The translations under genes and the position numbers were made by a program. DNA of 64,000 nt, taken from a bacterium. GTDB taxonomy: Bacteria > UBA8248. How positions within the stretch are numbered: position 1 is the stretch's first letter; each line of letters begins with the position of its first letter. The stretch is from positions 160,001 to 224,000 of the forward strand of contig OY843592.1 of assembly GCA_963692865.2 (NCBI GenBank), read 5' to 3'. A model generated the notes under the pieces. It saw only the letters and a program-made list of their open reading frames with translations, had not been told where the DNA came from and ran no database searches. Of the stretch, positions 3,303 to 51,932 are shown piece after piece.

Positions 3303-3537
3303 GGGGTTTTTGAAAAAGCCCCCCGAAGAGGGAAAGAACCCCGATCATCGAATTGTTTACCGTAGGGACAGGCCTCCGTGCCTGTCCTGACGGAGGCCTT
3401 CGTCCCGATGAAGACGCAGGACAACCGCGGAGGACAGGACAGGCACGGAGGCCTGTCCCTACAAAACCATCGCGTCCTCCCACGCAAAGAGAACCTCCAT
3501 ACCGCCTGCTTCCGAAACGGGCTTTTTCAACAGCCCC
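3303..3537. mobile_element. MITE-like element carrying an inverted GTAG-type REP pair
   Basis: Ends GGGGTTTTTGAAAAAGCCC / GGGCTTTTTCAACAGCCCC; flanks TCACA/TTACA; GTAGGGACAGGCCTCCGTGCCTGTCC at 3362-3387 and its exact reverse complement at 3437-3462. Confidence 0.75.
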
Positions 3538-27981: not shown

Positions 27982-28233
27982 ATGAGAAGCGGCGATGAAA
28001 TGCTGAAGCAGGTTGTCGATAAGTCCGCCCTGGACGCGGATTTCAGGCGGCAGTTGCTCTCGGACCCGAAGTCGACCATCAGTGAGGAATTGGGCATTAC
28101 GATTCCCGATTCGATGAACATCATGGTCCACGAGAGCGACATGCAGACGGTACACCTCGCGTTGCCCCCGGACCCGAACATCACCGAGGAGCAACTCGAA
28201 GCCATCTCGGCCGGCCTTTGCTGCTGCTGGTAG
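27982..28233 (+). CDS. NHLP-leader RiPP precursor with core LCCCW (SrpE-like)
   Basis: D.DFRRQLLSDPK..I, VHE....VHLALPP and EEQLEAISAG double-glycine-type site, then LCCCW*. Confidence 0.93.
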   Translation: MRSGDEMLKQVVDKSALDADFRRQLLSDPKSTISEELGITIPDSMNIMVHESDMQTVHLALPPDPNITEEQLEAISAGLCCCW

Positions 28234-28348: not shown

Positions 28349-29467
28349 TCAGGTTGAGAGCGCTCCGGAAAGCACCATGAACACATAGGCCTTGGCTTGC
28401 CTGAGCCGATTTCCGGATATGACCAGCTTTATGTGGTGAATACCCCGCAGCAGTATAAATTGCCCGGATTTTGCGAAAAGCGTCGTCGGTTTCGAAACCC
28501 AGTCGGCAAGCGCCTCAATCTTCTCCGGAACAACAATCTCCTCATGGCGCAGGGCTTCCAGAAGGGGGAACCAATCGGTCAGGCCGTCGAGAAAATAACG
28601 TGAATCTTTCGTATATCTCCACTTGACGATGGGCGTCAGGCCGAGCGTCGGACCGACGCCCTCTTCCCGCACGTCGACGTTCGCTCCGGTCCTCACGACA
28701 TTCGCGCGTTCCCTGAAGCGCGTGAGCACGGAATCGACGGCCGATATGTCCCCCGGCCAACCGATATTCTCGAGATAAGAACAAATTTCCCCCTGCGATT
28801 TGAAGCCCATGACCGCCAGACGGGTCGTGCGTTCCCGAGACGGGAATACCCCGAACGAGTCCAGGCGCGTGTCTTCGGGCTGCGCCAGGTAAACCCGTTC
28901 GGCGCTTTCCCGTTCGGCGGCAATCTTTTCCCAGCCGAGGCAGGAGACGAGGGCTTCGACCACGATCCCTACGTCATTCTGGAGACCCGCGCCGCCGGAC
29001 AGCGTGCGTTCATTGGGCCGCAGGAACATTCCCGGCAGCGAATTTTTACCGCCCGGCGCAGAATCGATATCGTACTCCAGCATCAATTTGCGTCCCACGA
29101 TCTCCCGCAGAGGCGAGTTCGGCGCTTCCATTTCCCGGAACAGCCGCCTGACCGCTCTCGCCGTCTCATCCGTCTCGTCGGTCCGCGCCAGATCTTCGAA
29201 AAAATCGCCCGATCGGTTTCCGCTCGCCAGCGAGACGCCGAAATCCGCCGCCGGCCGAGCGTCATGCAGAGGCAGTTCGAAACCGAACGGCTGGGCGCCC
29301 ATGGTTACGGGAAGCCGGCTCGCGCGTTCGAGTATGCGCTCCCACTCCCGATCTCCGATAAGACTTGGAGAAATCCTGTTTCGAAAGCGCCCGAGCAATT
29401 CAGCCATCGCGCCGCCCTCTTGGACGAGACGGTCCTGGGTAAGCGCGACTGCTTCGTCGATATCCAT
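28349..29467 (-). CDS. RiPP-associated protein, putative ABBA-fold prenyltransferase
   Basis: FGFEL....ADFGV, LEYD, IGWPG and terminal HHIKL...AKAYV; the ORF is solid but the function is inferred. Confidence 0.5.
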   Translation of the reverse strand: MDIDEAVALTQDRLVQEGGAMAELLGRFRNRISPSLIGDREWERILERASRLPVTMGAQPFGFELPLHDARPAADFGVSLASGNRSGDFFEDLARTDETDETARAVRRLFREMEAPNSPLREIVGRKLMLEYDIDSAPGGKNSLPGMFLRPNERTLSGGAGLQNDVGIVVEALVSCLGWEKIAAERESAERVYLAQPEDTRLDSFGVFPSRERTTRLAVMGFKSQGEICSYLENIGWPGDISAVDSVLTRFRERANVVRTGANVDVREEGVGPTLGLTPIVKWRYTKDSRYFLDGLTDWFPLLEALRHEEIVVPEKIEALADWVSKPTTLFAKSGQFILLRGIHHIKLVISGNRLRQAKAYVFMVLSGALST

Positions 29468-29476
29468 ATCGCCTCC

Positions 29477-31795
29477 TTACGCGATCACGGGCGCGGGATT
29501 CAGATCGGCTTCGGCCAGGGGGCGCCTGCGGCGGCCCATGTCGACAGGCGCGTCATACAAGCGCCCAGGCGCGAATCTCGCCCAGAAATGGCGCATGCCC
29601 GGCACGATGACCCGCGCAACCGGCATGCCGATGTCCGGCCGCGTCTGGTCCAGCGCGAGGAACTCCATGCCCCTGGCTTCCACCAACCCCCGGCAATGCT
29701 CCACGTCGTCGCGCGTGTCCTCGGTTTCGATTACCGGATACTGTGAGCATTTCTTGAGCGGCGCGTCCGGCGCCGGGGCCAGCCAGGAACAATCGGCGAT
29801 TCGAGCCGTTTTCCACCATTCGAGCGCCAGCGGATCGTCGATCATGGGCCGGCCGCCGCCCCCTCCGGGTCTCGGCAGCCAGGTAAGGCACTGGTTCAGC
29901 TCGCAAACCGCGCGCAGGGCCGCCAGACGCGGGTCGGCATGGGCGCCCGCGCCGTAAATGATGTCCTCGGTTTCCGCGTCCGGCCTGCGCGAGAGCGCAA
30001 CGAACGCGGGAATGCCGATATCGGAAGTAACGTCGAGCATCCACACTTCCCGCTCGCAGCGGCCGTAATAATCCGCGGCCGTTGCGAGGAATTCGTCGTC
30101 AAAGCTTAAAAGATCGACCCCGGGCGCCCTCAGTCCGTTATACCACCAGATGGCGAACGCATCGCGCTCGACCAGTTCATAGAAGCCTTGCAGGATGGCC
30201 TCCTCCAGAGTGTTCCCGGCGGCGCAGCCGTTGGAGTCGGCAATCAGATCGGCGGCTCCGCGCTGTTCGGCGGACATGCCGTAGAGCATCGACGTCGGCA
30301 GATACCGATGCCGCCGCTGCGTGAACGACCACACGGGGGTCCAGTCGATTTCGGCGTCGGGAGCAAGACGCGGCGGGACGACGTTGTACGGGTGGCCTTT
30401 CGCGTTGATGCTTTCCGCGTTGTCGAGCTGATCCTCGCTGAACAGCTGCGCATCGTTGGGATGGATCGCCTCGTCTTCCGCGGCGAAGTCGATGAACCGC
30501 CTGCGGGTGCGTATCTCGTCTCCGCACCAGGCGCCCGAATAACGCTCTATCGCCTCGCAGAGGGCGCTGGCCTCGGATTGTTCACGCGTGCTGCCCTTGC
30601 CGGCGCTCTTGCTGCGCAGGCTGCGCCTGAGCGAACTCAGGCTCCGGCTTCTCGCGGCGAGATTGCTCCCGGCCCAATAGACGTGCAGCCAGGAGTCGTT
30701 CTCGTCGGTCGTGCGCGTGAGCCAGGTCACGACGCCGCTGATCGGGCTCACCAGGTGGTGGTATTTCGCCAGGGTGGCTTCCGGCGTCACGGCCCGCGCG
30801 CCGCCGCTGTTGCGATGGGCTTTGGGGCTCGCTTTCAGACGCAGCGGCGACGGCGATCGATCCGGCCGGTAGAGCGCCTCGTCGCCACAGGCCGGGCACT
30901 GCGGCCGGCGCGTCACCAGGTGCTGCGAACTCGCAAACGCGCCGACGTTCATCGCCATCGCCCGCTCGTGAATCGGGGCCGCCTCGTCCAGCGCCAGCCA
31001 TTTGACGATCTCGGCCGCGATCAACCCGTACAGCGACTCCAGCACTGCGGGCTCGGCGGCGAACGGCTTGAAGGCGGCTTCCTCGCCGGCGAAGCTGCGC
31101 AGGAAATTGTGGACCTCCTTATGGCTGCGCAGACGGTTCGCCAGGCATTCCCAGCAGGGTCCTTGCCCGTCCGCGCGAAAGACGGGGCCGAACAGCGCCT
31201 CCATGCCGCGCGGACGCACCAGAGTCCACGGTGCTTTCGCCTCGAGCCTGCGCCGGTTCACCTCTGCAAACCGCGCTTCGAGATAATCCTCGCAGACGAT
31301 GACGGTGAGCTTCGGATCGCCGGCCGTCACACCGACGCCGCTCTCTTCCAGATGCCGGACGAAGCGGCCGTCGTCGCCTTCGACGGCGACCCGTGCCTGC
31401 GCCAGCCGCCCTTCGACCCAGCGGGGCGACGCGCCGAGCGACGACCAGTAGGCCGCCCGGCGCCGGTCCATGCCGTGGTCGGCGGAGACGACGTAGCCCC
31501 TGGCGGAGAGCGAAACAATCGCCGCGTGAACGTCGGCGGCGGGGTGGCGTCCATCGAGGGCGGCGGCAATCCCGGCCAGCGGGCGCCGGTCGCCCAGAAG
31601 CGGCAGCAGATCGCCATACAGGCCGCCGTGCAGCAGGGTATCGAACGACTCGGAGACCAGCAGGGTCTGCCGCTCGCCGATTTCTTGGAACTGCAGGTGC
31701 GGGGTGAGCGCGGGGAACTCGACGAGGCCCCGGTCCGCAGGGGTCGTTCTCGTCAATATCCCGCGCCGGGGATTCGTTTTCGGCTGGGTTGACAT
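29477..31795 (-). CDS. Fused leader-binding (E1-like) / YcaO cyclodehydratase (SrpC-like)
   Basis: GP.F....GPCWECL, RRPQCPACG, GKG, EAIERY, SNGCAAGNTLEEAILQGFYELVERDA, Pro-rich C-terminus LNPAPVIA. Confidence 0.93.
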   Translation of the reverse strand: MSTQPKTNPRRGILTRTTPADRGLVEFPALTPHLQFQEIGERQTLLVSESFDTLLHGGLYGDLLPLLGDRRPLAGIAAALDGRHPAADVHAAIVSLSARGYVVSADHGMDRRRAAYWSSLGASPRWVEGRLAQARVAVEGDDGRFVRHLEESGVGVTAGDPKLTVIVCEDYLEARFAEVNRRRLEAKAPWTLVRPRGMEALFGPVFRADGQGPCWECLANRLRSHKEVHNFLRSFAGEEAAFKPFAAEPAVLESLYGLIAAEIVKWLALDEAAPIHERAMAMNVGAFASSQHLVTRRPQCPACGDEALYRPDRSPSPLRLKASPKAHRNSGGARAVTPEATLAKYHHLVSPISGVVTWLTRTTDENDSWLHVYWAGSNLAARSRSLSSLRRSLRSKSAGKGSTREQSEASALCEAIERYSGAWCGDEIRTRRRFIDFAAEDEAIHPNDAQLFSEDQLDNAESINAKGHPYNVVPPRLAPDAEIDWTPVWSFTQRRHRYLPTSMLYGMSAEQRGAADLIADSNGCAAGNTLEEAILQGFYELVERDAFAIWWYNGLRAPGVDLLSFDDEFLATAADYYGRCEREVWMLDVTSDIGIPAFVALSRRPDAETEDIIYGAGAHADPRLAALRAVCELNQCLTWLPRPGGGGGRPMIDDPLALEWWKTARIADCSWLAPAPDAPLKKCSQYPVIETEDTRDDVEHCRGLVEARGMEFLALDQTRPDIGMPVARVIVPGMRHFWARFAPGRLYDAPVDMGRRRRPLAEADLNPAPVIA

Positions 31796-31828: not shown

Positions 31829-34225
31829 TTAGGTGCGCGAAACGAGCGTATCGATCGAGGCGGCGGCGCTGGATGCGGTTTCGGCGACCGCCGACGCCAG
31901 CGCATCGAAATCCTCCTGTCCGCAAGCGTTCGCAACGAGAGATTTGGCCTTCGTCCCCGCCGCCGCCGCGTCGAATCCTTCCTCGCCGACGAGGCGCATG
32001 ACGCCCTGCAAATCCCGCCACGCGGCCGCAGCCTGCGCCAGCGGCTCGGCGCCGGCCGCTTCGAACACCGCCGCAGCGCTCGGCGCCGGGTCGTCGAGGC
32101 AGCTTCCGCCGCGCGACAACTGCAGGTAGCGCGCGGCCTTCTCGACGTCGTTCAGCCCGCCGCGCATCCGGGCGTACGCGGACACGTCCGCTTCGGCGGG
32201 GTCTTCCGTCCGCTCGCTCAAGCGGGCGAGCAAGGACTCGTTCGCGCCGCATTCGGCCAGTATCTCGCGCCGCGCCTCCTCGAAGCGGCCGGCGATATCG
32301 GAACCTTCATACTCGAACGCGCAGCGCGCCCTGGTGAGGAGGGGGACTTCGCCCGGAGCCGGATTTCCGAAACGCCCGGCCAGTTCTGAAAGCGGCAAAG
32401 CCTGAATGGAATTCGAGCCGGGCGGGACCGGGGAGAACAGCAGACTGTCCTTTGCCAGGTCGGCCAGGGCCTCCTGGAAACTCAAGCACATTTGCTCATT
32501 CTTGCCGGACTGCCGGCCGTCGTGGAGGATCAGCATTTCAATTCCAACGCCGGGATATGCTTCTCTACTTGCCAGATCGCCCAGCAAAACGGCGGCGACG
32601 CCACCCACGCTCAGCATCCCGAAGCGGTCGACGTAATCCGCGACCACGGAGGCGAGCACGGTCGAAATCGATGCTTCGGCGAGATTCGAGAGCGCCGTTC
32701 TCGCTTCCGCCGGTAGCAGGTTCCCGCGCACCACGTGCATACTGATCTGAAACGCCTTGTCGTTCGACCAGTTTCGCACGATTTCGGCGGTTTCCCTCGA
32801 ATCGGCCACCGGCAATTCGGCGACAAGCTCCTTCATTTCCTGAACGCCCATTTCGTACGTCCAGTAAACCCTCGCGAGCCCGCGCCGCGCAATCGATTCG
32901 TATTCATCATCCGGGCCGAACCCTTTCGGGAGGTCGAGATCGAGGAATTCCTGATCCTGCAGGTTATCGAGAAGTTCCGGGTTCCGTTCAATACATTTCG
33001 CAAGCCGAGGGGCGGCGCCGAAGATTTCGAGTATCGCGTCGAAGGCGTCGGGCCGCGCCGCGGCGATCGGACTGTCGTAGGGGCTCCAGTCGTCGATCTC
33101 CGGGTAGAAATGCTCGCGCCACTGGTCCACCAGCGGGTCCATCTTCTCGAACCAGCGCTTGGGCCGCAGCACGATGTTCATCATATCGGCGTAGGTTCCC
33201 GGCAGTTCCGGCGACTCGTCGAGGCCGCTGACCTGCAGCAGGGGATACTGGCGGGAAGCCACCGCGTGATGATCCGCATGACGCTGCATGTTGAAAAACA
33301 TCCAGTTGCTGAACTTCCAGTCGGCGCTCCAGGAATGGCGCGGCATCGCCTTCTCCCAGCGGCCGTTGTCCAGGCGGACCCGGCGCAGGCCGTAGTGCTG
33401 AAAGTAGTTGCTCATCTTCATCGAAAAGACGCAGGACAGGCCGAGGAAGACGAAGACCGGAACGGCCCAGATCCCGCCCATCCAGAAAACCAGTCCGCAC
33501 CAGAACGCGACGCCTACCGCGTAGCGCCAGAACGGATTGTCGTAATGCCACACGGGCAGACGGCGCCGCGTCAGGCGTTCTATGGCGACTTCCCAGGAAT
33601 GGACGAGGTTGCTGGCAACTTCCTTCGGGAAATATTTCCAGAAACTCTCCCCCTTCGGAGCGGACCCCACGTCATACGGCGTGCCGACCAGGGCATGGTG
33701 AATATAGACGTGTTCCGTGGCGTACTGCGGATAGGAGACGGAGGCGAGCAGGAATTCGCCGACCCGGCGTTCCCAGGTCGTGCGCCGATGAATCATTTCA
33801 TGGCCGACGACGAATACGGCTTGCGCTTCCATCGTCAATATGATCGCCAGGAGCGCGCCTTCCCAGATGGAGAATTGATCCGCCGCCAGGATTTGCCACA
33901 TGCCGAAAACGAGCGTCGGCGGCCACAGAAACGACCACGACCAGACCGGCAGGTTGTGCCAGAAGAGGCGGTGTTCCGGCGTATTCGAAGGGTCCATGTT
34001 TTGTCCGTCCCGACCCAGCGCCCGATCAAGATACCCCGCCAAACTCATGAAGACGAGCGGCGGCAACAACCACCAGCCTCCATAGAGCGCGCCGAGAAGA
34101 ATCAACGGAAAAACGGCCAACGGCAGATAATGCGGAAGAGCGGTCAGAATGGACGGCTCGATACGCCGAGTGGCCTCAGCGCCGCCTGGGCCGGAGCCAC
34201 CACTTGCAACCGGACTCTGTGGCAT
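31829..34225 (-). CDS. AlkB-type membrane di-iron hydroxylase fused to a degenerate GlnE-like nucleotidyltransferase module
   Basis: His boxes HEMIH, EHVYIHH, NYFQHYGL, QRHADHH; C-terminal ALSNLAEA, LGDLASRE and RGGLNDVE resemble GlnE. Confidence 0.8.
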   Translation of the reverse strand: MPQSPVASGGSGPGGAEATRRIEPSILTALPHYLPLAVFPLILLGALYGGWWLLPPLVFMSLAGYLDRALGRDGQNMDPSNTPEHRLFWHNLPVWSWSFLWPPTLVFGMWQILAADQFSIWEGALLAIILTMEAQAVFVVGHEMIHRRTTWERRVGEFLLASVSYPQYATEHVYIHHALVGTPYDVGSAPKGESFWKYFPKEVASNLVHSWEVAIERLTRRRLPVWHYDNPFWRYAVGVAFWCGLVFWMGGIWAVPVFVFLGLSCVFSMKMSNYFQHYGLRRVRLDNGRWEKAMPRHSWSADWKFSNWMFFNMQRHADHHAVASRQYPLLQVSGLDESPELPGTYADMMNIVLRPKRWFEKMDPLVDQWREHFYPEIDDWSPYDSPIAAARPDAFDAILEIFGAAPRLAKCIERNPELLDNLQDQEFLDLDLPKGFGPDDEYESIARRGLARVYWTYEMGVQEMKELVAELPVADSRETAEIVRNWSNDKAFQISMHVVRGNLLPAEARTALSNLAEASISTVLASVVADYVDRFGMLSVGGVAAVLLGDLASREAYPGVGIEMLILHDGRQSGKNEQMCLSFQEALADLAKDSLLFSPVPPGSNSIQALPLSELAGRFGNPAPGEVPLLTRARCAFEYEGSDIAGRFEEARREILAECGANESLLARLSERTEDPAEADVSAYARMRGGLNDVEKAARYLQLSRGGSCLDDPAPSAAAVFEAAGAEPLAQAAAAWRDLQGVMRLVGEEGFDAAAAGTKAKSLVANACGQEDFDALASAVAETASSAAASIDTLVSRT

Positions 34226-34305: not shown

Positions 34306-35604
34306 TCAGGACTGCAAGACGGCGAGGAGACGCACGAGGGCTTCGATACAAAACGCAGTGGTCACGGATTCGGAGCCATGTCCTATCTGTCCGAATGCGC
34401 CCCACTTCAGCGTTTGATCTCCGAACGCGAGAAGTTCCGGCCAGCTGCCGTCCTCGTGCTGCGAACCCGTGAACCTTTCCACCCGGCGTTTCGCGTCGAC
34501 CCCGTCGAGGCGCCCGGCAAGATGAAGCGCCGAGACGGCCTGAGCCGTTTGAAGGATGTTGCCGAACCCCCCCTCGTCGTCCTGTAAGTCCAGGATGCGA
34601 GCCGCAAATACCGGGCGCAGCCGGTCGAGGGCGGGCCGCGCGCGGACCATGGCGCGGGCGGTTGCATAGCAGATCGCGGCCTCGTCGGGATACCATTTGG
34701 AGGAGCCCTCGAGTTTGCCTTCGGTTATCAAGGCTTCCAGCCATCGTTGGGCATCCCTGGTTTCAGGATGGTCGCCGAGATAGGCGATGACGTTCGCATT
34801 GACTACGGGGTCGGCCTCGATGCGAAAGCGCGACACGACGTCGGGTTCGTCGTCCTCCAGAACCCAGGTCATGAAACGGCCTTCCTCGTCGCGGTTCGCC
34901 AGTATCCGCGGAACGTTCCTCCCCAGCAGAATCCAGGGGTGAGTCCCGATCACGAGTGAACACAGCGCGGTGCTGTCGAGATCCCGGGGCAGGTGCCGGT
35001 AGTAGCGCCACAATCCGGGATATTCGATGGTGTCGACGAGATACGCCCTGGTCGCGGCGCAGATGGCCCTGGCGCGCGCTTCCCCGCAGCATTCCAGGGC
35101 AAGGGCGCAGAAAGCCGATATGAAGGGAGGTTTTTCGAAATGCCGTGGTATGTCCGGATTGCCTACGTTGAACCGGATGCAGCGCCAGGCGCCGTTCTCG
35201 TCTATGGTGGATTCCAGGAAATCGAGACCGCGGCGGATGCTTTCTCTCCCCGCATTTACGAATGCTTCCGTGGCGGCGTTCTTCGGGACTCTCTCCCCTC
35301 GAGGCGCGGGCGGACGAAGGGGCGGCGCCGGAGCGTGCATGGTCTTGCGAAGAAACTCGATAGATTCCGCACCGGTTTTCGCCTCCTCCCGTTCCGCCCT
35401 GGTGAATTTGCTGCGAGGCGGAAGGACGACGTGCGTCGATTCATAGGTTTCTTCGTGGACGTGAATCTCATGGCCTTCGGCCATCGTCACGCCGAATTCC
35501 TCTTCGATGGTCTCTTCGGGTTTGGCGAGAAGACGTTCGCGAAAGTCGTGGTCGTCGCCGGCTCGCGATACGAGGAAATCGGCCAGGCCAAAGGGTTTCT
35601 TCAT
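34306..35604 (-). CDS. NHLP-leader-like domain fused to a prenyltransferase/squalene-cyclase-repeat (class II terpene cyclase-like) domain
   Basis: N-terminal D.DFRERLLAKP...VHEE....HVVLPP; DLDSTA (DxDD-like); QW-like repeats QDDEGGF and QHEDGSW. Confidence 0.78.
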   Translation of the reverse strand: MKKPFGLADFLVSRAGDDHDFRERLLAKPEETIEEEFGVTMAEGHEIHVHEETYESTHVVLPPRSKFTRAEREEAKTGAESIEFLRKTMHAPAPPLRPPAPRGERVPKNAATEAFVNAGRESIRRGLDFLESTIDENGAWRCIRFNVGNPDIPRHFEKPPFISAFCALALECCGEARARAICAATRAYLVDTIEYPGLWRYYRHLPRDLDSTALCSLVIGTHPWILLGRNVPRILANRDEEGRFMTWVLEDDEPDVVSRFRIEADPVVNANVIAYLGDHPETRDAQRWLEALITEGKLEGSSKWYPDEAAICYATARAMVRARPALDRLRPVFAARILDLQDDEGGFGNILQTAQAVSALHLAGRLDGVDAKRRVERFTGSQHEDGSWPELLAFGDQTLKWGAFGQIGHGSESVTTAFCIEALVRLLAVLQS

Positions 35605-35621
35605 CGATGTCCGCTCCATTT

Positions 35622-36036
35622 GGGGCTGTTGAAAAACCCGCCCCGCTCGTCATTCCACCGCCCTGAAAACCACCCCCCCCTACCCCCCCTTGTCAGGGGT
35701 CAAAACCGACCGAAGAGGGAGGTTTTGCAAGACGATGTGTTTCTCGTCAATGGCTTATGCAAACGCTCGTTCATCGGGGTTGTTGAAAAACCTGTCCCTC
35801 TCGGATCAACCACGTTTTACCCGTAGGGGCCGCATATCATGCGGCCCGGCCTTTTCGCCTTCACAATACGGGTCGCATGATATGCGACCCCTACAATAGA
35901 AACGACTATGACGGCAGTGGTCAATCCGAACGGGGAGGGGTTTTTCAACAACCCCTCCTCACTCGCGTTTGACCCCTGGCAAGGGGGGGTAGGGGGGGGT
36001 TGCCTTTACCCTCTCAGGGGCTTTTTCAACAACCCC
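35622..36036. mobile_element. Nested MITE-like elements (outer 35622-36036, inner 35776-35955)
   Basis: Outer ends GGGGCTGTTGAAAAA / TTTTTCAACAACCCC with exact CATTT on both sides; inner ends flanked by TCATC/TCCTC and enclosing a GTAG-REP pair at 35823-35894. Confidence 0.82.
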
Positions 36037-36100
36037 CATTTTCGCGTGTCCCGGCCGAACGCGCACTTTCCGCCGCCAGGTTGCCGTCTGCATGTTCGGA

Positions 36101-45965: not shown

Positions 45966-47135
45966 ATGGCGAAACCTGAACACGGGACACTGTCGAACCG
46001 AGCGGTCGGGAAGCTCGCGGTGGAGAAAGACACGGTGTACTGGGACCGGGAACTCACGGGCTTCGGCGTGAGGGTGTATCCCACCGGCTCGAAAGTCTAC
46101 GTCGCCCAGGCCCGGGGTCCCGAGGGTCCCAGGAGGGTGGCGGTGGGCCGCCACGGGGTGATCAACGCGGATGAGGCGAGGAAGCGCGCCGCCCACATCA
46201 TCGCGAGGATCAAGGCGGGCGAGGAGGCTATCCCCAAGCCGATGAAGCCAGTGGGAGGCCCCACGGTGACCGAACTCTGCGCGCGCTATCTTGCCGAATA
46301 CGTCTCGGTGCGGTGCAAGCCGGGCACAGCCACGCTCTACCGCTCGGTGATCGACCGCCACCTCCTGCCCGCCCTGGGCAGGACGCCGCTGGCCGCGCTT
46401 TCCCGCGCGCGGGTGGCGGAATTCCATGAAAGCCTGTACGAGACGCCCGCGGTGGCAAACACGGCGCTCCGCGTCCTGTCCGCGATGTACGAGCAGGCCC
46501 GGGGCTGGGGACTGCTGCCCGAAGGAACATCAAATCCCTGCCGAGCCCAGGTGAAATACCCCGAGCGCAGGCGCGAGCGGTTCCTGACGGATTCGGAGTT
46601 CATCCGCCTGGGAGAGGTCCTCGACGAGGCTGAGGCCCGGGGCGGCGCCTCCGCATCCGCGGTGGCGGCTATCCGGCTGCTCGCGCTGACGGGGTGCCGC
46701 AGGAGCGAGATACTCAAACTGCGCCGGGAAGACGTGGCGCTCGAAGCGGGCGAGCTGAGACTCCCCGATTCCAAGACGGGCGCGCGGGCCGTCGCGCTGC
46801 CGCCGCAGGCGGTCGAGCTCCTCGGAAGCCTCCTTGACGCCCACGACGGCCCCTGGGTCATCCCGGGCAGGAAGCCGGGGACGCGCCTTGCGAACGTCGA
46901 CGAGGCCTGGCGGGCGATCAGGAAGCGCGCGGGCCTCGAAGGCGTGAGGTTGCACGACCTGCGCCATTCCTACGCCTCGCGCGCCCTGGCGCTCGGTGAG
47001 CCGCTGCCCGTCATCGGGAAACTCCTGGGCCACAGCCGGCTGGAAACGACGGCGCGTTACGCGCACCTCGCGCGCGATACGGCGCAGGAGGCGGCCGAGC
47101 GGGTCGCGGAGAGCATCGCTGCGGATATACTTTAA
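45966..47135 (+). CDS. Second, paralogous tyrosine integrase with arm-binding domain
   Basis: YWDRELTGFGVRV, TGCRRSE, SKTG, HDLRHSYAS, LLGH, RYAHL. Confidence 0.93.
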   Translation: MAKPEHGTLSNRAVGKLAVEKDTVYWDRELTGFGVRVYPTGSKVYVAQARGPEGPRRVAVGRHGVINADEARKRAAHIIARIKAGEEAIPKPMKPVGGPTVTELCARYLAEYVSVRCKPGTATLYRSVIDRHLLPALGRTPLAALSRARVAEFHESLYETPAVANTALRVLSAMYEQARGWGLLPEGTSNPCRAQVKYPERRRERFLTDSEFIRLGEVLDEAEARGGASASAVAAIRLLALTGCRRSEILKLRREDVALEAGELRLPDSKTGARAVALPPQAVELLGSLLDAHDGPWVIPGRKPGTRLANVDEAWRAIRKRAGLEGVRLHDLRHSYASRALALGEPLPVIGKLLGHSRLETTARYAHLARDTAQEAAERVAESIAADIL

Positions 47136-49094: not shown

Positions 49095-51932
49095 CTACAG
49101 TTCCATGCCCCGATCCGATCGGGTCTTCTCAATCACCGGCGTCCGCCTCTCCATTGCCTGCGTCGCCTCGTTCGGCTTCTCCGCCCCGATGCTCTCCGCC
49201 TTGCCCGCTCCTATCGCCTCGAGCGCCGCGACCCGCTCGCCCGTCGCGGCCTCCAATCGCTCACGCAGCGCCTTCGCGTCGTCGGTCACGAGTTCCGCCT
49301 TATCCCGGGCGCGGCTGATCTCGACGTAGAGCGTCTTCTGGTTGGTGAGGTCGGGGTGGTTGGCCTCCATGGCGGCGATGACGGTATCGACCGTCCGGCC
49401 CTGGAAGGCGTGGACGGTCGAGGCCCATGCGCGGTCGATATGGCGAAGCTGCGGAACGCCGGCGGCCATGACGATCGTGCGCCCGTCCTCGATGCGGAAG
49501 GTGACGCGGCCTTTCCTGATGCCCGTCACCTCGGCGGCCTGGCTGTTGACCAGGCCGAGTTCCCTGTCGTTCCGGGTCCAGCGGACTCTGTCGCCTGCGC
49601 GCAGCTCTATCCGCTCGACCTTGTAGACCTCGACACCTCCGGTACGCGCCGCGAGGCGGCCCGGCTCCCAGCGAACCTCCCCTCCATGCATGCCCTGCAG
49701 GATGACCGCGCCCTTCGCGTGATCCACGCCCTTCACGCGCAGCTCGTCTCCCTTCTCGACGCCCAGGCGCTTGTAGCGGCGTTCGAAGGCGACGACGTCG
49801 CCGGGCGAATAGTTCGCGGCGAGCGATTTCTCGGGGTTCGTGTAGCCGCGCGAGACGAGGCGATTCGTGCGGAAGGCCGGGCCGCAGACGGCGCCCTCCC
49901 GGACCAGGCGCTCGCGGACGATGGCGTTGATCTTCTCGCGGATCGCGTGGCTCGGCGCCATGAGCCCCGCCCGTTCGCGCGCCTCGGGCGGGAGCGCGAG
50001 CCAGCGCGCGGCGGCGGCGCCCGCGAGGTTGTCGGCCTTCACTTCGGCCACGTTGGAACCGAGCTTCTCGAAGGCGCGCCTTACGTCGCCCGCGAGGGTG
50101 GCCTCGACGGCGGCTTTCAGGTCCGGTTCGCGCTGGCGCATGATCTCGCTCATGGTGACCGTCTTCATGCCCGCGGCCTGCAGCTGCGCGAAGGGTTTCC
50201 CGGCGTCGACGGCGTCGAGCTGTTTCTCATCGCCCACCAGAACGACCCGCGGCATGCGCAGTACCTCCGAGATGCGGAGCAGTTCGCGCATCTCGCGCGT
50301 GGAAGCCAGGGATCCCTCGTCCACGACGAGAGCGGTCCTGCGCCAGGCGGAGCGCATCTTCTTCTCGCCCCCTCTCGTGAGGCGGCCTTGGGCTACCCCT
50401 GCGTTTCGCGCGAGGAAGCGCTGGAGCGTCTCGCTCTCGATCCCCGCTTCCGCTTCGAGCGTCCTTGCGGCGGAGGCCGAAGGCGCCAGGCCCCGGACCT
50501 CGTAGCCGCGTTTCTCGAACAGGGCGCGGGCGCGCTTGAGCATCTTCGTCTTGCCGGTGCCCGCATAGCCCTGCACGCCCACCACGCGATCAGGGTCCGC
50601 GAGGATCAGCTTGACCGCCTCTCTTTGGCCCTGCGTCAGCGGTCCCCTGTGCAGATGCCGATCCACCATCCAGCCCCGCATGGCGGGCGCGCCCCGTCCG
50701 CGGCCGGCCTCCACGAGGGCGATGGTCTCTCGCTCCGCCGCCGCGGCCTTCTCCGTCGTGAGCATGTCCTTCATTCCCGGCAGGTCCGCCGCGTGCAGGA
50801 CGCCCGATTTTTCGAGTCTCGCCACTTCTCGTTCGGCGCCCGCCATCGACACCGCGCCGGGCCGCCAGGCGAGCGCGCCCGCGAGCAGGGCCGCGCGGTC
50901 GAAGACCGCCTCTCGTTCCGCGAGGTGCGCCACGGCCCAGTCCACGGCCTCCCGGGCGGGTTCGACTTCCGCCGCGCTCAGACCTGCGTCGCGGGACATG
51001 GCGCGCCTCTCCATCGCCTGCGCCTTGAGGGCGGCGGCGTCGAAGCCCAGCTCCTTCGCCTGCTTCTCCCATACGGCCATGAGCGCCGACTTGTCGGCTT
51101 CCCGCTTGGGGTCCCTCGTCATGAGCGTCACCCGCTGGGCCGCGCGCTGGTTCCCGGCCGTCTTGCCGAGTCCGCGTTCTTCCATCGCCTTCTCGATCTC
51201 CGCCCGCCTGCTCGAGAACGCCTCGATCACCTCGCGCGATACGCCCTCGATCTCGAAGCGCCCGTCCGCGTGGGTCTTCTCGACCCGGTAGCCGAACCCC
51301 TCGAGGCCGCGGGCGAGTTCGGTCCGGTATATCGCGCCGATCAGCATCTTCTGGGCGTAGAGCTTCTCGTTGGACATCGTGCGCCACTTGCCATCGGCGC
51401 CACGCACCATGTTGGCGATGACCGCGTGCGTGTGGAGCAGGGGGTCCATGTTGCGCGAGGTGTTGTGCCTGAAAGTCGCGACGACGCTCTTCTGGTCGCC
51501 GACACGGATCATGCGCCCGGTCCCGGGCTCGCTCATCCTGGTCTCTGCGGCGTTGCGCTCCACCCAGTCCAGGGTGCCCGACACGGCCACCTCGTGGGCC
51601 CACATCGCGCGCCCGTCGCCCCCGAGGTAGGTCAGCAGCGAGACGGACTTGGGCGCCGAGAGGGTGAGGTCGCGGCCGGGACGGTGGTGGATGACGCCGT
51701 CCTTGCCCCTCTTCCCGAGCCTTTGTCCCGAGCCGTCCGGCACCACGCCCTCGAGCACGGAGCGCAAGACTTCCGGATCCACCGGACCCGACAGCCCCAG
51801 GTCCTCGGCGCCCCTGCCGCGCCAGGTGCTCGACTCCCGGTGGTGCGGGGAGTCCTTCGCGTAGTAGTCGTCGCGCTCGAAGTAGGCGACGCACTGCGCC
51901 GGCGCGGCGACGGCGCCGATCGATGCGACCAT
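49095..51932 (-). CDS. trwC: MOBF conjugative relaxase-helicase (TrwC/TraI family)
   Basis: YF..DDYY, DLTLSAPKSVS, HNTSRNMDPLLHTH (HUH); helicase QGYAGTGKT, VVDEGS, QGRT, YVEISR. Confidence 0.93.
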   Translation of the reverse strand: MVASIGAVAAPAQCVAYFERDDYYAKDSPHHRESSTWRGRGAEDLGLSGPVDPEVLRSVLEGVVPDGSGQRLGKRGKDGVIHHRPGRDLTLSAPKSVSLLTYLGGDGRAMWAHEVAVSGTLDWVERNAAETRMSEPGTGRMIRVGDQKSVVATFRHNTSRNMDPLLHTHAVIANMVRGADGKWRTMSNEKLYAQKMLIGAIYRTELARGLEGFGYRVEKTHADGRFEIEGVSREVIEAFSSRRAEIEKAMEERGLGKTAGNQRAAQRVTLMTRDPKREADKSALMAVWEKQAKELGFDAAALKAQAMERRAMSRDAGLSAAEVEPAREAVDWAVAHLAEREAVFDRAALLAGALAWRPGAVSMAGAEREVARLEKSGVLHAADLPGMKDMLTTEKAAAAERETIALVEAGRGRGAPAMRGWMVDRHLHRGPLTQGQREAVKLILADPDRVVGVQGYAGTGKTKMLKRARALFEKRGYEVRGLAPSASAARTLEAEAGIESETLQRFLARNAGVAQGRLTRGGEKKMRSAWRRTALVVDEGSLASTREMRELLRISEVLRMPRVVLVGDEKQLDAVDAGKPFAQLQAAGMKTVTMSEIMRQREPDLKAAVEATLAGDVRRAFEKLGSNVAEVKADNLAGAAAARWLALPPEARERAGLMAPSHAIREKINAIVRERLVREGAVCGPAFRTNRLVSRGYTNPEKSLAANYSPGDVVAFERRYKRLGVEKGDELRVKGVDHAKGAVILQGMHGGEVRWEPGRLAARTGGVEVYKVERIELRAGDRVRWTRNDRELGLVNSQAAEVTGIRKGRVTFRIEDGRTIVMAAGVPQLRHIDRAWASTVHAFQGRTVDTVIAAMEANHPDLTNQKTLYVEISRARDKAELVTDDAKALRERLEAATGERVAALEAIGAGKAESIGAEKPNEATQAMERRTPVIEKTRSDRGMEL

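Follow-up and report, generated by a model that had tools for sequence, protein, structure and literature searches.

What is a copy of a precursor peptide's leader doing at the front of a terpene cyclase? The question is raised by a gene at 34306..35604 (minus strand) of a 64,000-nucleotide stretch of bacterial DNA (assembly GCA_963692865.2, contig OY843592.1, positions 160,001 to 224,000; hereafter the window). The gene encodes a leader-like domain joined to a class II terpene cyclase, and lies in a cluster for a ribosomally synthesised and post-translationally modified peptide (RiPP). The precursor of this cluster, SrpE, has a leader of the NHLP (nitrile hydratase-like leader peptide) type. 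An earlier note on this DNA had proposed that the extra leader either docks the enzyme onto its partners or is cleaved off during export. In our reading, the leader-cyclase gene would be a core maturase of the cluster. We put the chances at about even that the product of a nearby gene, orf372, prenylates the C-terminal Trp of SrpE, that the leader-cyclase then cyclises the prenyl chain, and that the leader copy remains uncleaved as a docking module.

The leader-like domain and the cyclase domain

An in-frame upstream ATG at 35619 extends the open reading frame (ORF) to 34306..35619 (437 aa, minus strand), and residue numbers below refer to this longer form. The start Met of the homologues corresponds to M6 (MKKP..., coordinate 35604), where the earlier note had also placed the end of the gene; counted from M6, the protein has 432 aa. 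Residues 6-83 (35371..35604, minus) make up the N-domain, a paralogue of the SrpE NHLP leader that ends at an invariant Gly83. Residues 84-116 (35272..35370, minus) form a conserved junction, (A)ASLEFLRKTMHDPAPPLRPP..., which runs into a variable linker, and residues 117-437 (34309..35271, minus) constitute the class II terpene cyclase domain, which consists of one alpha/alpha toroid. The strings that the earlier note quoted (DFRERLLAKP, VHEE, HVVLPP, EREEAKTGA and DLDSTA) all occur in the translated ORF, as does the Pro-rich linker that it placed after the leader copy (stretch HAPAPPLRPPAP). Profile, BLASTP and fold evidence agree on both of its domain assignments. The AlphaFold2 model of the whole protein has a mean predicted local distance difference test (pLDDT) of 88.2 and a predicted template modelling score (pTM) of 0.81.

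The N-domain matches the NHLP model TIGR03793 over residues 16-71 (E 1.4e-10, 40.8 bits), the Pfam model NHase_alpha (E 2.1e-5) and, in the PDB, nitrile hydratase alpha chains (E 4.5e-8) and the nuclear magnetic resonance (NMR) structure of an NHLP, 8tb1 (E 0.0044). SrpE, encoded in the same window, reaches 65.5 bits with this NHLP model, above the curated cut-off. In BLASTP, the N-domain aligns with SrpE over 68 aa without a gap (37% identity, E 1e-17), the former ending in TG and the latter in AG. When the two family profiles (47 N-domains and 56 SrpE sequences from related loci) were compared with hhalign, columns 8-78 fell on columns 8-78 with 98.9% probability and an E-value of 1.6e-17. 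Both comparisons agree with the observation in the earlier note that the first ~80 aa parallel the precursor leader, with EREEAKTGA at the position of EQLEAISAG; and the N-terminus, which that note allowed might lie outside the NHLP profiles, lies within them by its matches to TIGR03793 and SrpE. By sequence, the N-domain is a paralogue of the SrpE leader of the same length, up to the Gly that precedes the core. Its model comprises three predicted helices and a beta-hairpin (AlphaFold2), and the surface positions L16, R19, A20 and D23 of helix alpha1 are conserved among 79 orthologues.

Two other identities for the protein were considered and ruled out. It is not a true nitrile hydratase: the genome's genuine alpha chain (260 aa, metal site VCTLCSC) is encoded elsewhere, at G000:C1:1070807-1073971 (L004/L005), a locus that accounts for two of the genome's five matches to the NHLP model. 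Nor is it a giant precursor peptide, as the region past the leader copy is a folded enzyme.

The fusion is widely conserved. A word-based search gave 1071 homologues, and the best 120 of these are 431-466 aa long, 72-97% identical to the query and cover at least 97% of it. In a scan of one genome per species, 270 genomes had a relative; the best 80 loci, many of them cut by contig ends, were examined. The match starts at or before query residue 15 in 79 of the 80, and the one remaining locus (L062) is truncated at the end of its contig. The presence of the junction in 79 of 80 loci rules out the assembly artefact that the earlier note had considered, as well as a fusion created by gene calling. 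These loci are metagenome-assembled genomes (MAGs) of Nitrospinota, Nitrospirales, Gamma-, Alpha- and Deltaproteobacteria, Binatia, Bryobacterales, Gemmatimonadota, Latescibacterota and others, and the fusion gene always lies within the published srp cluster of sponge symbionts. A scan of metagenome contigs with P0123, a member of a 57%-identical leader-cyclase clade, gave one 1.9-kb fragment.

For the cyclase domain, a search of 1.84 billion representatives gave 1154 relatives at E <= 0.001; among the 150 of these matches that were listed, most align to residues ~115-435 alone, and many are stand-alone proteins of ~290-360 aa. A profile built from 73 relatives (A2) was searched against the PDB. 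It matched drimenol synthase AsDMS over the whole cyclase domain (E 6.6e-31), squalene-hopene cyclase (SHC; E 1.2e-25), AstC (E 1.6e-19) and MstE (E 8e-5). A Foldseek search of the PDB with the AlphaFold2 model returned AsDMS (E 7.5e-12) and MstE (E 1.3e-9), followed by monodomain SHC-like cyclases, for a total of 48 matches at E <= 0.001, and the fold is that of an alpha/alpha toroid. Among curated models, Pfam SQHop_cyclase_C matched only residues 356-396, at 24.5 bits against a cut-off of 26.1, and the library scan reported no NCBIfam cyclase model, such as TIGR01787, for the protein.

The acid motif, D213-L214-D215-S216-T217 (34969..34983, minus), was located by alignment with solved class II cyclases. 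In the HMMER alignment, the family's DlDd falls on DLDTT of AsDMS and on DVDDTA of SHC, and the Asn of the AsDMS D333N mutant chain sits at the second Asp. The residues D213, L214, D215 and S216 are identical in 79/79 orthologues, the segment W204-R-Y-Y-R-H-L-P-x-D-L-D-S-T is invariant in a 15-sequence alignment, and the consensus outside the srp clade is mostly DLDDTA. Hence the motif stands as the earlier note had read it, with the general-acid Asp retained. The QW-like repeats also noted there fared less evenly: the Q387-W393 stretch aligns with a QW segment of SHC, while the other repeats are unconfirmed. Judged by sequence and model, the C-terminal part of the protein is a single-domain class II terpene cyclase that looks active. 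It shares 30-47% identity with relatives in which an ABBA-like, P450, sulfotransferase or DUF2332 domain is attached to the cyclase, which suggests that this cyclase domain is usually tethered to another tailoring enzyme.

SrpE, its known modifications and the candidate prenyltransferase

Its core LCCCW, YcaO protein (SrpC) and Trp-6 brominase (SrpI) mark the cluster, by sequence, as the published srp cluster of sponge symbionts, a point absent from the earlier note. These same three components are described for srp clusters in the accessible text of PMC10858898 and PMC10286304, where thiazolines and 6-bromo-Trp are the only modifications of the SrpE core that are named. In the window, SrpE (83 aa; 27982..28233, plus) consists of an NHLP leader ending in ...EQLEAISAG and the core LCCCW. 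An ORF ending in AGLCCCW was found in 59 of the 80 loci, and the core ends in Trp in 59/59 of the SrpE ORFs found, which would supply a Trp acceptor. The SrpC-type protein (29477..31795, minus) is a fused E1-like/RiPP recognition element (RRE) and YcaO cyclodehydratase (YcaO E 6.7e-90, TIGR03882 E 4.3e-40, TIGR03604 E 1.4e-78), and the SrpI-type flavin-dependent tryptophan halogenase (42348..43625, minus) matches Pfam Trp_halogenase at E 1.5e-43.

Between SrpE and SrpC lies orf372 (28349..29467, minus), which has no Pfam, NCBIfam or PDB sequence match. A language-model search pointed weakly towards ABBA prenyltransferases, and was taken as a lead only. The AlphaFold2 model of orf372 (pLDDT 90.2, pTM 0.90) was then compared by Foldseek: the top matches are all indole or aromatic ABBA prenyltransferases, 6-DMATS being the best (E 1.6e-5), and further matches include 5-DMATS, PriB, IptA, CymD and NphB/Orf2, with template modelling (TM) scores of ~0.4-0.57. 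On its model, orf372 is predicted to have the fold of an ABBA indole prenyltransferase. Neither this reading of orf372, as the likely source of the cyclase's substrate, nor the known RiPP prenyltransferase-cyclase enzymes figure in the earlier note.

The relatives of the cyclase lead to the same pairing. There are distant relatives of ~650-700 aa whose C-halves match the cyclase domain, and in two such fusions, P0236 (670 aa, E 7e-7) and P0266 (691 aa, E 4e-6; both E-values are for a database of 150 sequences), the N-half can be aligned with the whole of orf372. The family profile of orf372 matches that of a seven-member fusion family over 266 columns (95.9%, E 5.7e-9), and one fusion, P0192, has a weak Trp_DMAT match. 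Gene linkage was assessed by tblastn of the window's neighbouring genes against the 80 loci. orf372 is the most frequent companion (71/80), followed by ABC2 and YcaO (70/80 each), C39-ABC (69/80), a desaturase fusion (68/80), an HlyD-like gene (52/80) and the halogenase (48/80); a NUDIX gene and the integrase are found in 0/80. An ABBA part alongside a cyclase part is thus indicated by the predicted fold of orf372, by its linkage and by the fusions in relatives. A complex prediction for full-length leader-cyclase with orf372 gave a score of 0.01 and a mark of 0.32, and speaks neither for nor against their pairing.

The same genome also carries a second, minimal RiPP cassette (G000:C1:1163551-1165072; L002, L091, L092). 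Here, a 424-aa paralogue of orf372 (34% identity, E 1.3e-42) adjoins a second NHLP precursor (TIGR03793 61.7 bits), which ends its leader in ...DIVAG and continues with the core TQAPLDFVNAWNNLNQNI, containing a Trp. No cyclase or exporter is nearby, the neighbours being a DNA methylase and a permease, and no second cyclase is present in the genome.

In the mechanism that we favour, orf372 and the leader-cyclase would together correspond, as two separate proteins, to the prenyltransferase-cyclase ('PC') RiPP maturases, in which both parts are fused. orf372 would attach a prenyl chain to the C-terminal Trp of the SrpE core, itself thiazoline-modified and brominated, after which the cyclase would use Asp215 to protonate the double bond at the chain's end and fold it up into rings. 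The leader copy would stay on the enzyme as a module for protein-protein docking or positioning. The sequences and models show the homologies, the folds, the conserved motif, the gene linkage and the fusions in relatives; the site of prenylation, the length of the chain, the order of the steps and the binding target of the leader copy are what we infer.

Docking by the leader copy and the alternatives to it

Whether the leader copy is a cleavable signal or a lasting part of the enzyme can be judged from the positions around Gly83, whose conservation was counted over the 79 orthologues. Positions -12, -7 and -4 of SrpE (I, L and I/V, comprising the L(X)4L motif plus -4) are matched by enzyme residues 72, 77 and 80. 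Residue 72 is still hydrophobic (F/L/Y/I in 77/79). In contrast, residue 77, a Leu in SrpE, is Arg in 78/79 and Gln in 1/79, and residue 80, Ile/Val in SrpE, is Ala in 79/79. Gly83 (-1) is invariant (79/79), preceded at residue 82 by Thr in 64/79 and by Ala in 8/79. In the alternative register, with cleavage after GA, position -4 is Lys/Arg in 75/79 and -7 is Glu. A double-Gly-type site with hydrophobic residues at -4, -7 and -12 is therefore not retained by the N-domain, which keeps only -12 and the Gly at -1. The C39 domain LahT, according to the accessible text of PMC6363468, leaves substrates that carry either an acidic or a basic residue at -4 or -7 unprocessed.

Past Gly83 there is no short modifiable core; a junction and a folded enzyme domain follow instead. 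Within the junction S86, L90, T93, P97, A98, P99 and R102 are identical in 79/79, the segment is also retained in the 57%-identical clade, and the model places a helix at 87-93 (AlphaFold2, pLDDT ~61-77). Recognition positions have been lost while the residues after the Gly are invariant, the reverse of what would be expected of a cleaved export signal. Hence the N-domain is probably an uncleaved, permanent part of the enzyme in which the folded nucleus has been kept. Cleavage by C39 and export of the enzyme, the second role suggested in the earlier note, is disfavoured by Arg and Ala at -7 and -4, by Glu and Lys/Arg in the other register and by the invariant segment after the Gly.

What, then, could such a domain bind? 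The L(X)4L motif is the binding site for SrpI, and this motif together with helix alpha1 is required by the YcaO protein MprC (PMC12455567 and the accessible text of PMC12537861). The folded leader nucleus is gripped by the RRE of a YcaO protein (PMC12455567) and, as given in the accessible text of PMC12715784, such nuclei are also gripped by LanM enzymes and by a prenyltransferase. The leader copy has lost the L(X)4L required for the canonical YcaO/RRE binding mode. It thus appears to have shed the motifs by which it would compete with SrpE for SrpI, for the strand site of the RRE and for the protease. Docking of the leader copy on a candidate partner, one of the srp enzymes or SrpE, is plausible and would be the most economical account.

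A more specific proposal is that the leader copy acts as a portable docking tag. The cyclase, being unable to read a leader, would carry a recognition-dead duplicate of the leader nucleus and either ride on the surface of the YcaO RRE or of the prenyltransferase that binds leader nuclei, or pair with the leader of the substrate. As a corollary, the srp product would be a brominated, thiazoline-rich pentapeptide with a cyclised terpene on its Trp. We offer this version tentatively, as one that could well be wrong.

Several observations weigh against prenylation, cyclisation and docking as outlined above. The N-domain falls short of the curated cut-off of TIGR03793 (40.8 versus 50.9 bits). The third Asp of DxDD is Ser in this enzyme, and Thr in AsDMS. 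Of the solved relatives AsDMS is the closest in sequence, and its substrate is free farnesyl diphosphate (FPP), not a peptide. Among the conserved genes of the cluster, none for an isoprenyl diphosphate synthase was seen. Finally, no prenylated or cyclised srp product was found in the searchable literature, from which the primary srp and PC papers are excepted.

The main rival to docking is an intramolecular role, in which the leader copy would bind the cyclase domain of its own chain and serve it as an internal activating leader, or else inhibit it as a pseudo-substrate. Engineered fusions of leader and enzyme that are constitutively active are known; moreover, the invariant junction ASLEFLRKTMHDPAPP could pack on the toroid, and the monomer model of this two-domain protein has a pTM of 0.81. 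However, the pLDDT of residues 51-100 is only 52-77, and the stand-alone and fused relatives of the cyclase function without a leader-like domain. We regard this role as unlikely.

Alternatively, the enzyme might cyclise a free isoprenyl diphosphate (for example, FPP to a drimenyl-type product), yielding a separate terpenoid or a cyclic donor, with the leader copy merely keeping it near the peptide machinery. That the best solved sequence matches are the drimenol/drimenyl synthases AsDMS and AstC would fit such an activity. Nevertheless, identity to AsDMS is ~19%, compared with 30-47% for the relatives fused to ABBA-like, P450, sulfotransferase and DUF2332 domains, and there is no HAD or other phosphatase partner. 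The leader copy would have no obvious use in this scheme, and drimenyl diphosphate would probably be a poor donor for an ABBA enzyme. A free-terpenoid cyclase is, in our judgement, distinctly unlikely.

As export cargo, the enzyme would be cleaved at TG|A or GA| by the C39 peptidase/ABC exporter and act outside the cytoplasm. Gly83 does occupy the position of the cleavage-site Gly of SrpE, Thr/Ala-Gly-Ala resembles a double-Gly-type site, and the gene usually has that of the ABC2 exporter immediately upstream. Yet both registers place at -4 or -7 the charged residues that LahT does not tolerate, the invariant residues past the Gly are unexpected for a new N-terminus, and in Nitrospirales loci the gene occurs with no exporter nearby. 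A toroid of ~350 aa is also far bigger than the usual cargo of C39/ABC exporters, and we consider export quite improbable. Least credible of all is a non-catalytic toroid that binds lipid or product (as a carrier or an immunity protein) without cyclisation: DxDD is changed to DxDS and the matches to Pfam/NCBIfam cyclase models are all under cut-off, but the proton-donor Asp and its surroundings are invariant in the alignments described above, and AsDMS is active with DxDTT, as judged from PDB titles and the alignment.

The wider cluster and comparison with known systems

Next to the leader-cyclase gene is a gene (31829..34225, minus) for a 798-aa protein with a fatty-acid-desaturase and a GlnE-like nucleotidyltransferase region (FA_desaturase E 4.7e-26, GlnE E 2.2e-5). 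The cluster contains no SagB-type azoline dehydrogenase, and this fusion might therefore oxidise or adenylylate the peptide or a lipid. On the other side is the gene for the NHLM export protein ABC2 (979 aa; 36101-39040, minus; TIGR03797 E 5.4e-197), in most loci the immediate upstream neighbour of the leader-cyclase gene. Some ~294 N-terminal residues of ABC2 are not covered by the TIGR03797 model and lack a Pfam match. The ABC2 gene is followed by the C39 peptidase protein ABC1 (39037-41247, minus; TIGR03796 E 1.7e-254, Peptidase_C39 E 9.3e-34) and by a short HlyD-like protein (183 aa; 41249-41800, minus; TIGR03794 E 2e-5). The latter matches TIGR03794, a model of 421 positions, with its first ~50 residues alone. 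As the short form recurs in 52/80 loci, it is, by sequence conservation, a truncated but retained adaptor and not a broken gene.

A repeat, GGGGYTGTTGAAAAACC, occurs in 11 copies in the window at <=2 mismatches, where 0.01 would be expected. Its sites lie at 35622-36044 and also at 3303, 3521, 22193, 27531, 42218, 44020 and 44200. The unusually long spacer (~480 bp) between the ABC2 and leader-cyclase genes holds 48-nt inverted repeats as well as four copies of the repeat, which occur in both orientations. From its sequence and placement the repeat looks like an intergenic element of the repetitive extragenic palindromic (REP) or miniature inverted-repeat transposable element (MITE) kind. Two tandem tyrosine integrases (44740-47135, plus; Phage_integrase E 1e-19 and 1e-22) and a TrwC relaxase (49095-51932, minus; E 4.6e-79) flank the halogenase side of the cluster. 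This fits carriage on an integrative/conjugative element and the spread of the cluster across phyla.

The srp cluster is described, in the accessible text of PMC12426817 and bioRxiv 10.1101/2023.06.09.544420, as one of the RiPP clusters that are most widespread and most highly expressed in marine sponge microbiomes, with a cryptic product and role. Two of its unannotated core genes can now be read as those of a prenyltransferase and a terpene cyclase, which suggests that the srp product carries a cyclised lipid; the prediction for the missing srp chemistry is a lipid-cyclised Trp. If the leader copy on the tailoring enzyme acts as proposed, it would be a natural use of the substrate's own recognition domain on an enzyme, and a portable docking tag would be an undescribed natural way to assemble a RiPP multi-enzyme complex. 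Both would be relevant to leader engineering and to how multi-enzyme pathways are organised by the long, folded NHLP leaders. Neither a natural leader-enzyme fusion nor terpenoid chemistry in srp was found in the searchable literature, two primary papers and the supplements excepted.

Compared with the published srp clusters, the cluster in the window has the identical core, the fused YcaO, the Trp halogenase and the NHLP-type exporters, and shares with them an occurrence in sponge MAGs of many phyla. The srp descriptions cover thiazoline formation and Trp-6 bromination, whereas prenylation, a cyclase and the leader-cyclase gene are not among their subjects. There is no mention of these three in PMC12615548 or in the accessible text of PMC10858898, the original 2021 srp description lying outside this comparison. 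Likewise, in their accessible text, PMC12537861 does not contain 'terpene', PMC10286304 has 'prenyl' in a reference only, and bioRxiv 10.1101/2023.06.09.544420 does not contain 'cyclase' and refers to terpenes solely as a class of biosynthetic gene clusters.

With NHLP leaders (TIGR03793; the MprE7 NMR structure 8tb1; Haft 2010, PMC2887384), the N-domain shares a homologous folded nucleus. It differs from them in scoring below the curated cut-off, in having lost the L(X)4L motif and the recognition positions -7 and -4, and in what follows: a short core peptide after an NHLP leader, but an invariant junction and a folded enzyme of ~320-350 aa after the N-domain. The cyclase domain, in turn, has the fold of AsDMS (9mhs, 9m7d), AstC and MstE, with the acid motif aligned and near-full coverage, at an identity of ~17-20%. 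AsDMS and AstC carry a HAD (haloacid dehalogenase) phosphatase domain and act on free FPP, while the srp protein carries a leader-like domain and belongs to a RiPP cluster.

Peptide prenylation followed by cyclisation is already published, as is the srp cluster. In the PalX/PalQ system (PMC10853753), a dedicated enzyme prenylates the C-terminal Trp of an NHLP precursor. Both systems thus have an NHLP leader and a C-terminal Trp that is the site of prenylation (for srp, the likely site); PalQ, however, has a trans-isoprenyl diphosphate synthase/terpene-synthase fold and not an ABBA fold, and PalX/PalQ has neither a cyclase nor a leader-enzyme fusion. The closer parallel is NctPC, in which, according to the accessible text of PMC13290415, an ABBA P domain and an MstE-like C domain geranylgeranylate the Trp of a ribosomal peptide and then cyclise the chain. 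NctPC and ChrPC pair a Trp prenyltransferase with an MstE-like monodomain class II cyclase for the attached chain, as we propose for srp, and the fusions of ABBA-like and cyclase domains among the distant relatives of the leader-cyclase have exactly the NctPC architecture. Set against the architecture in that part of the published text, P and C are fused in NctPC, whereas in srp they are separate genes, and it is C that bears the copy of the leader at its N-terminus.

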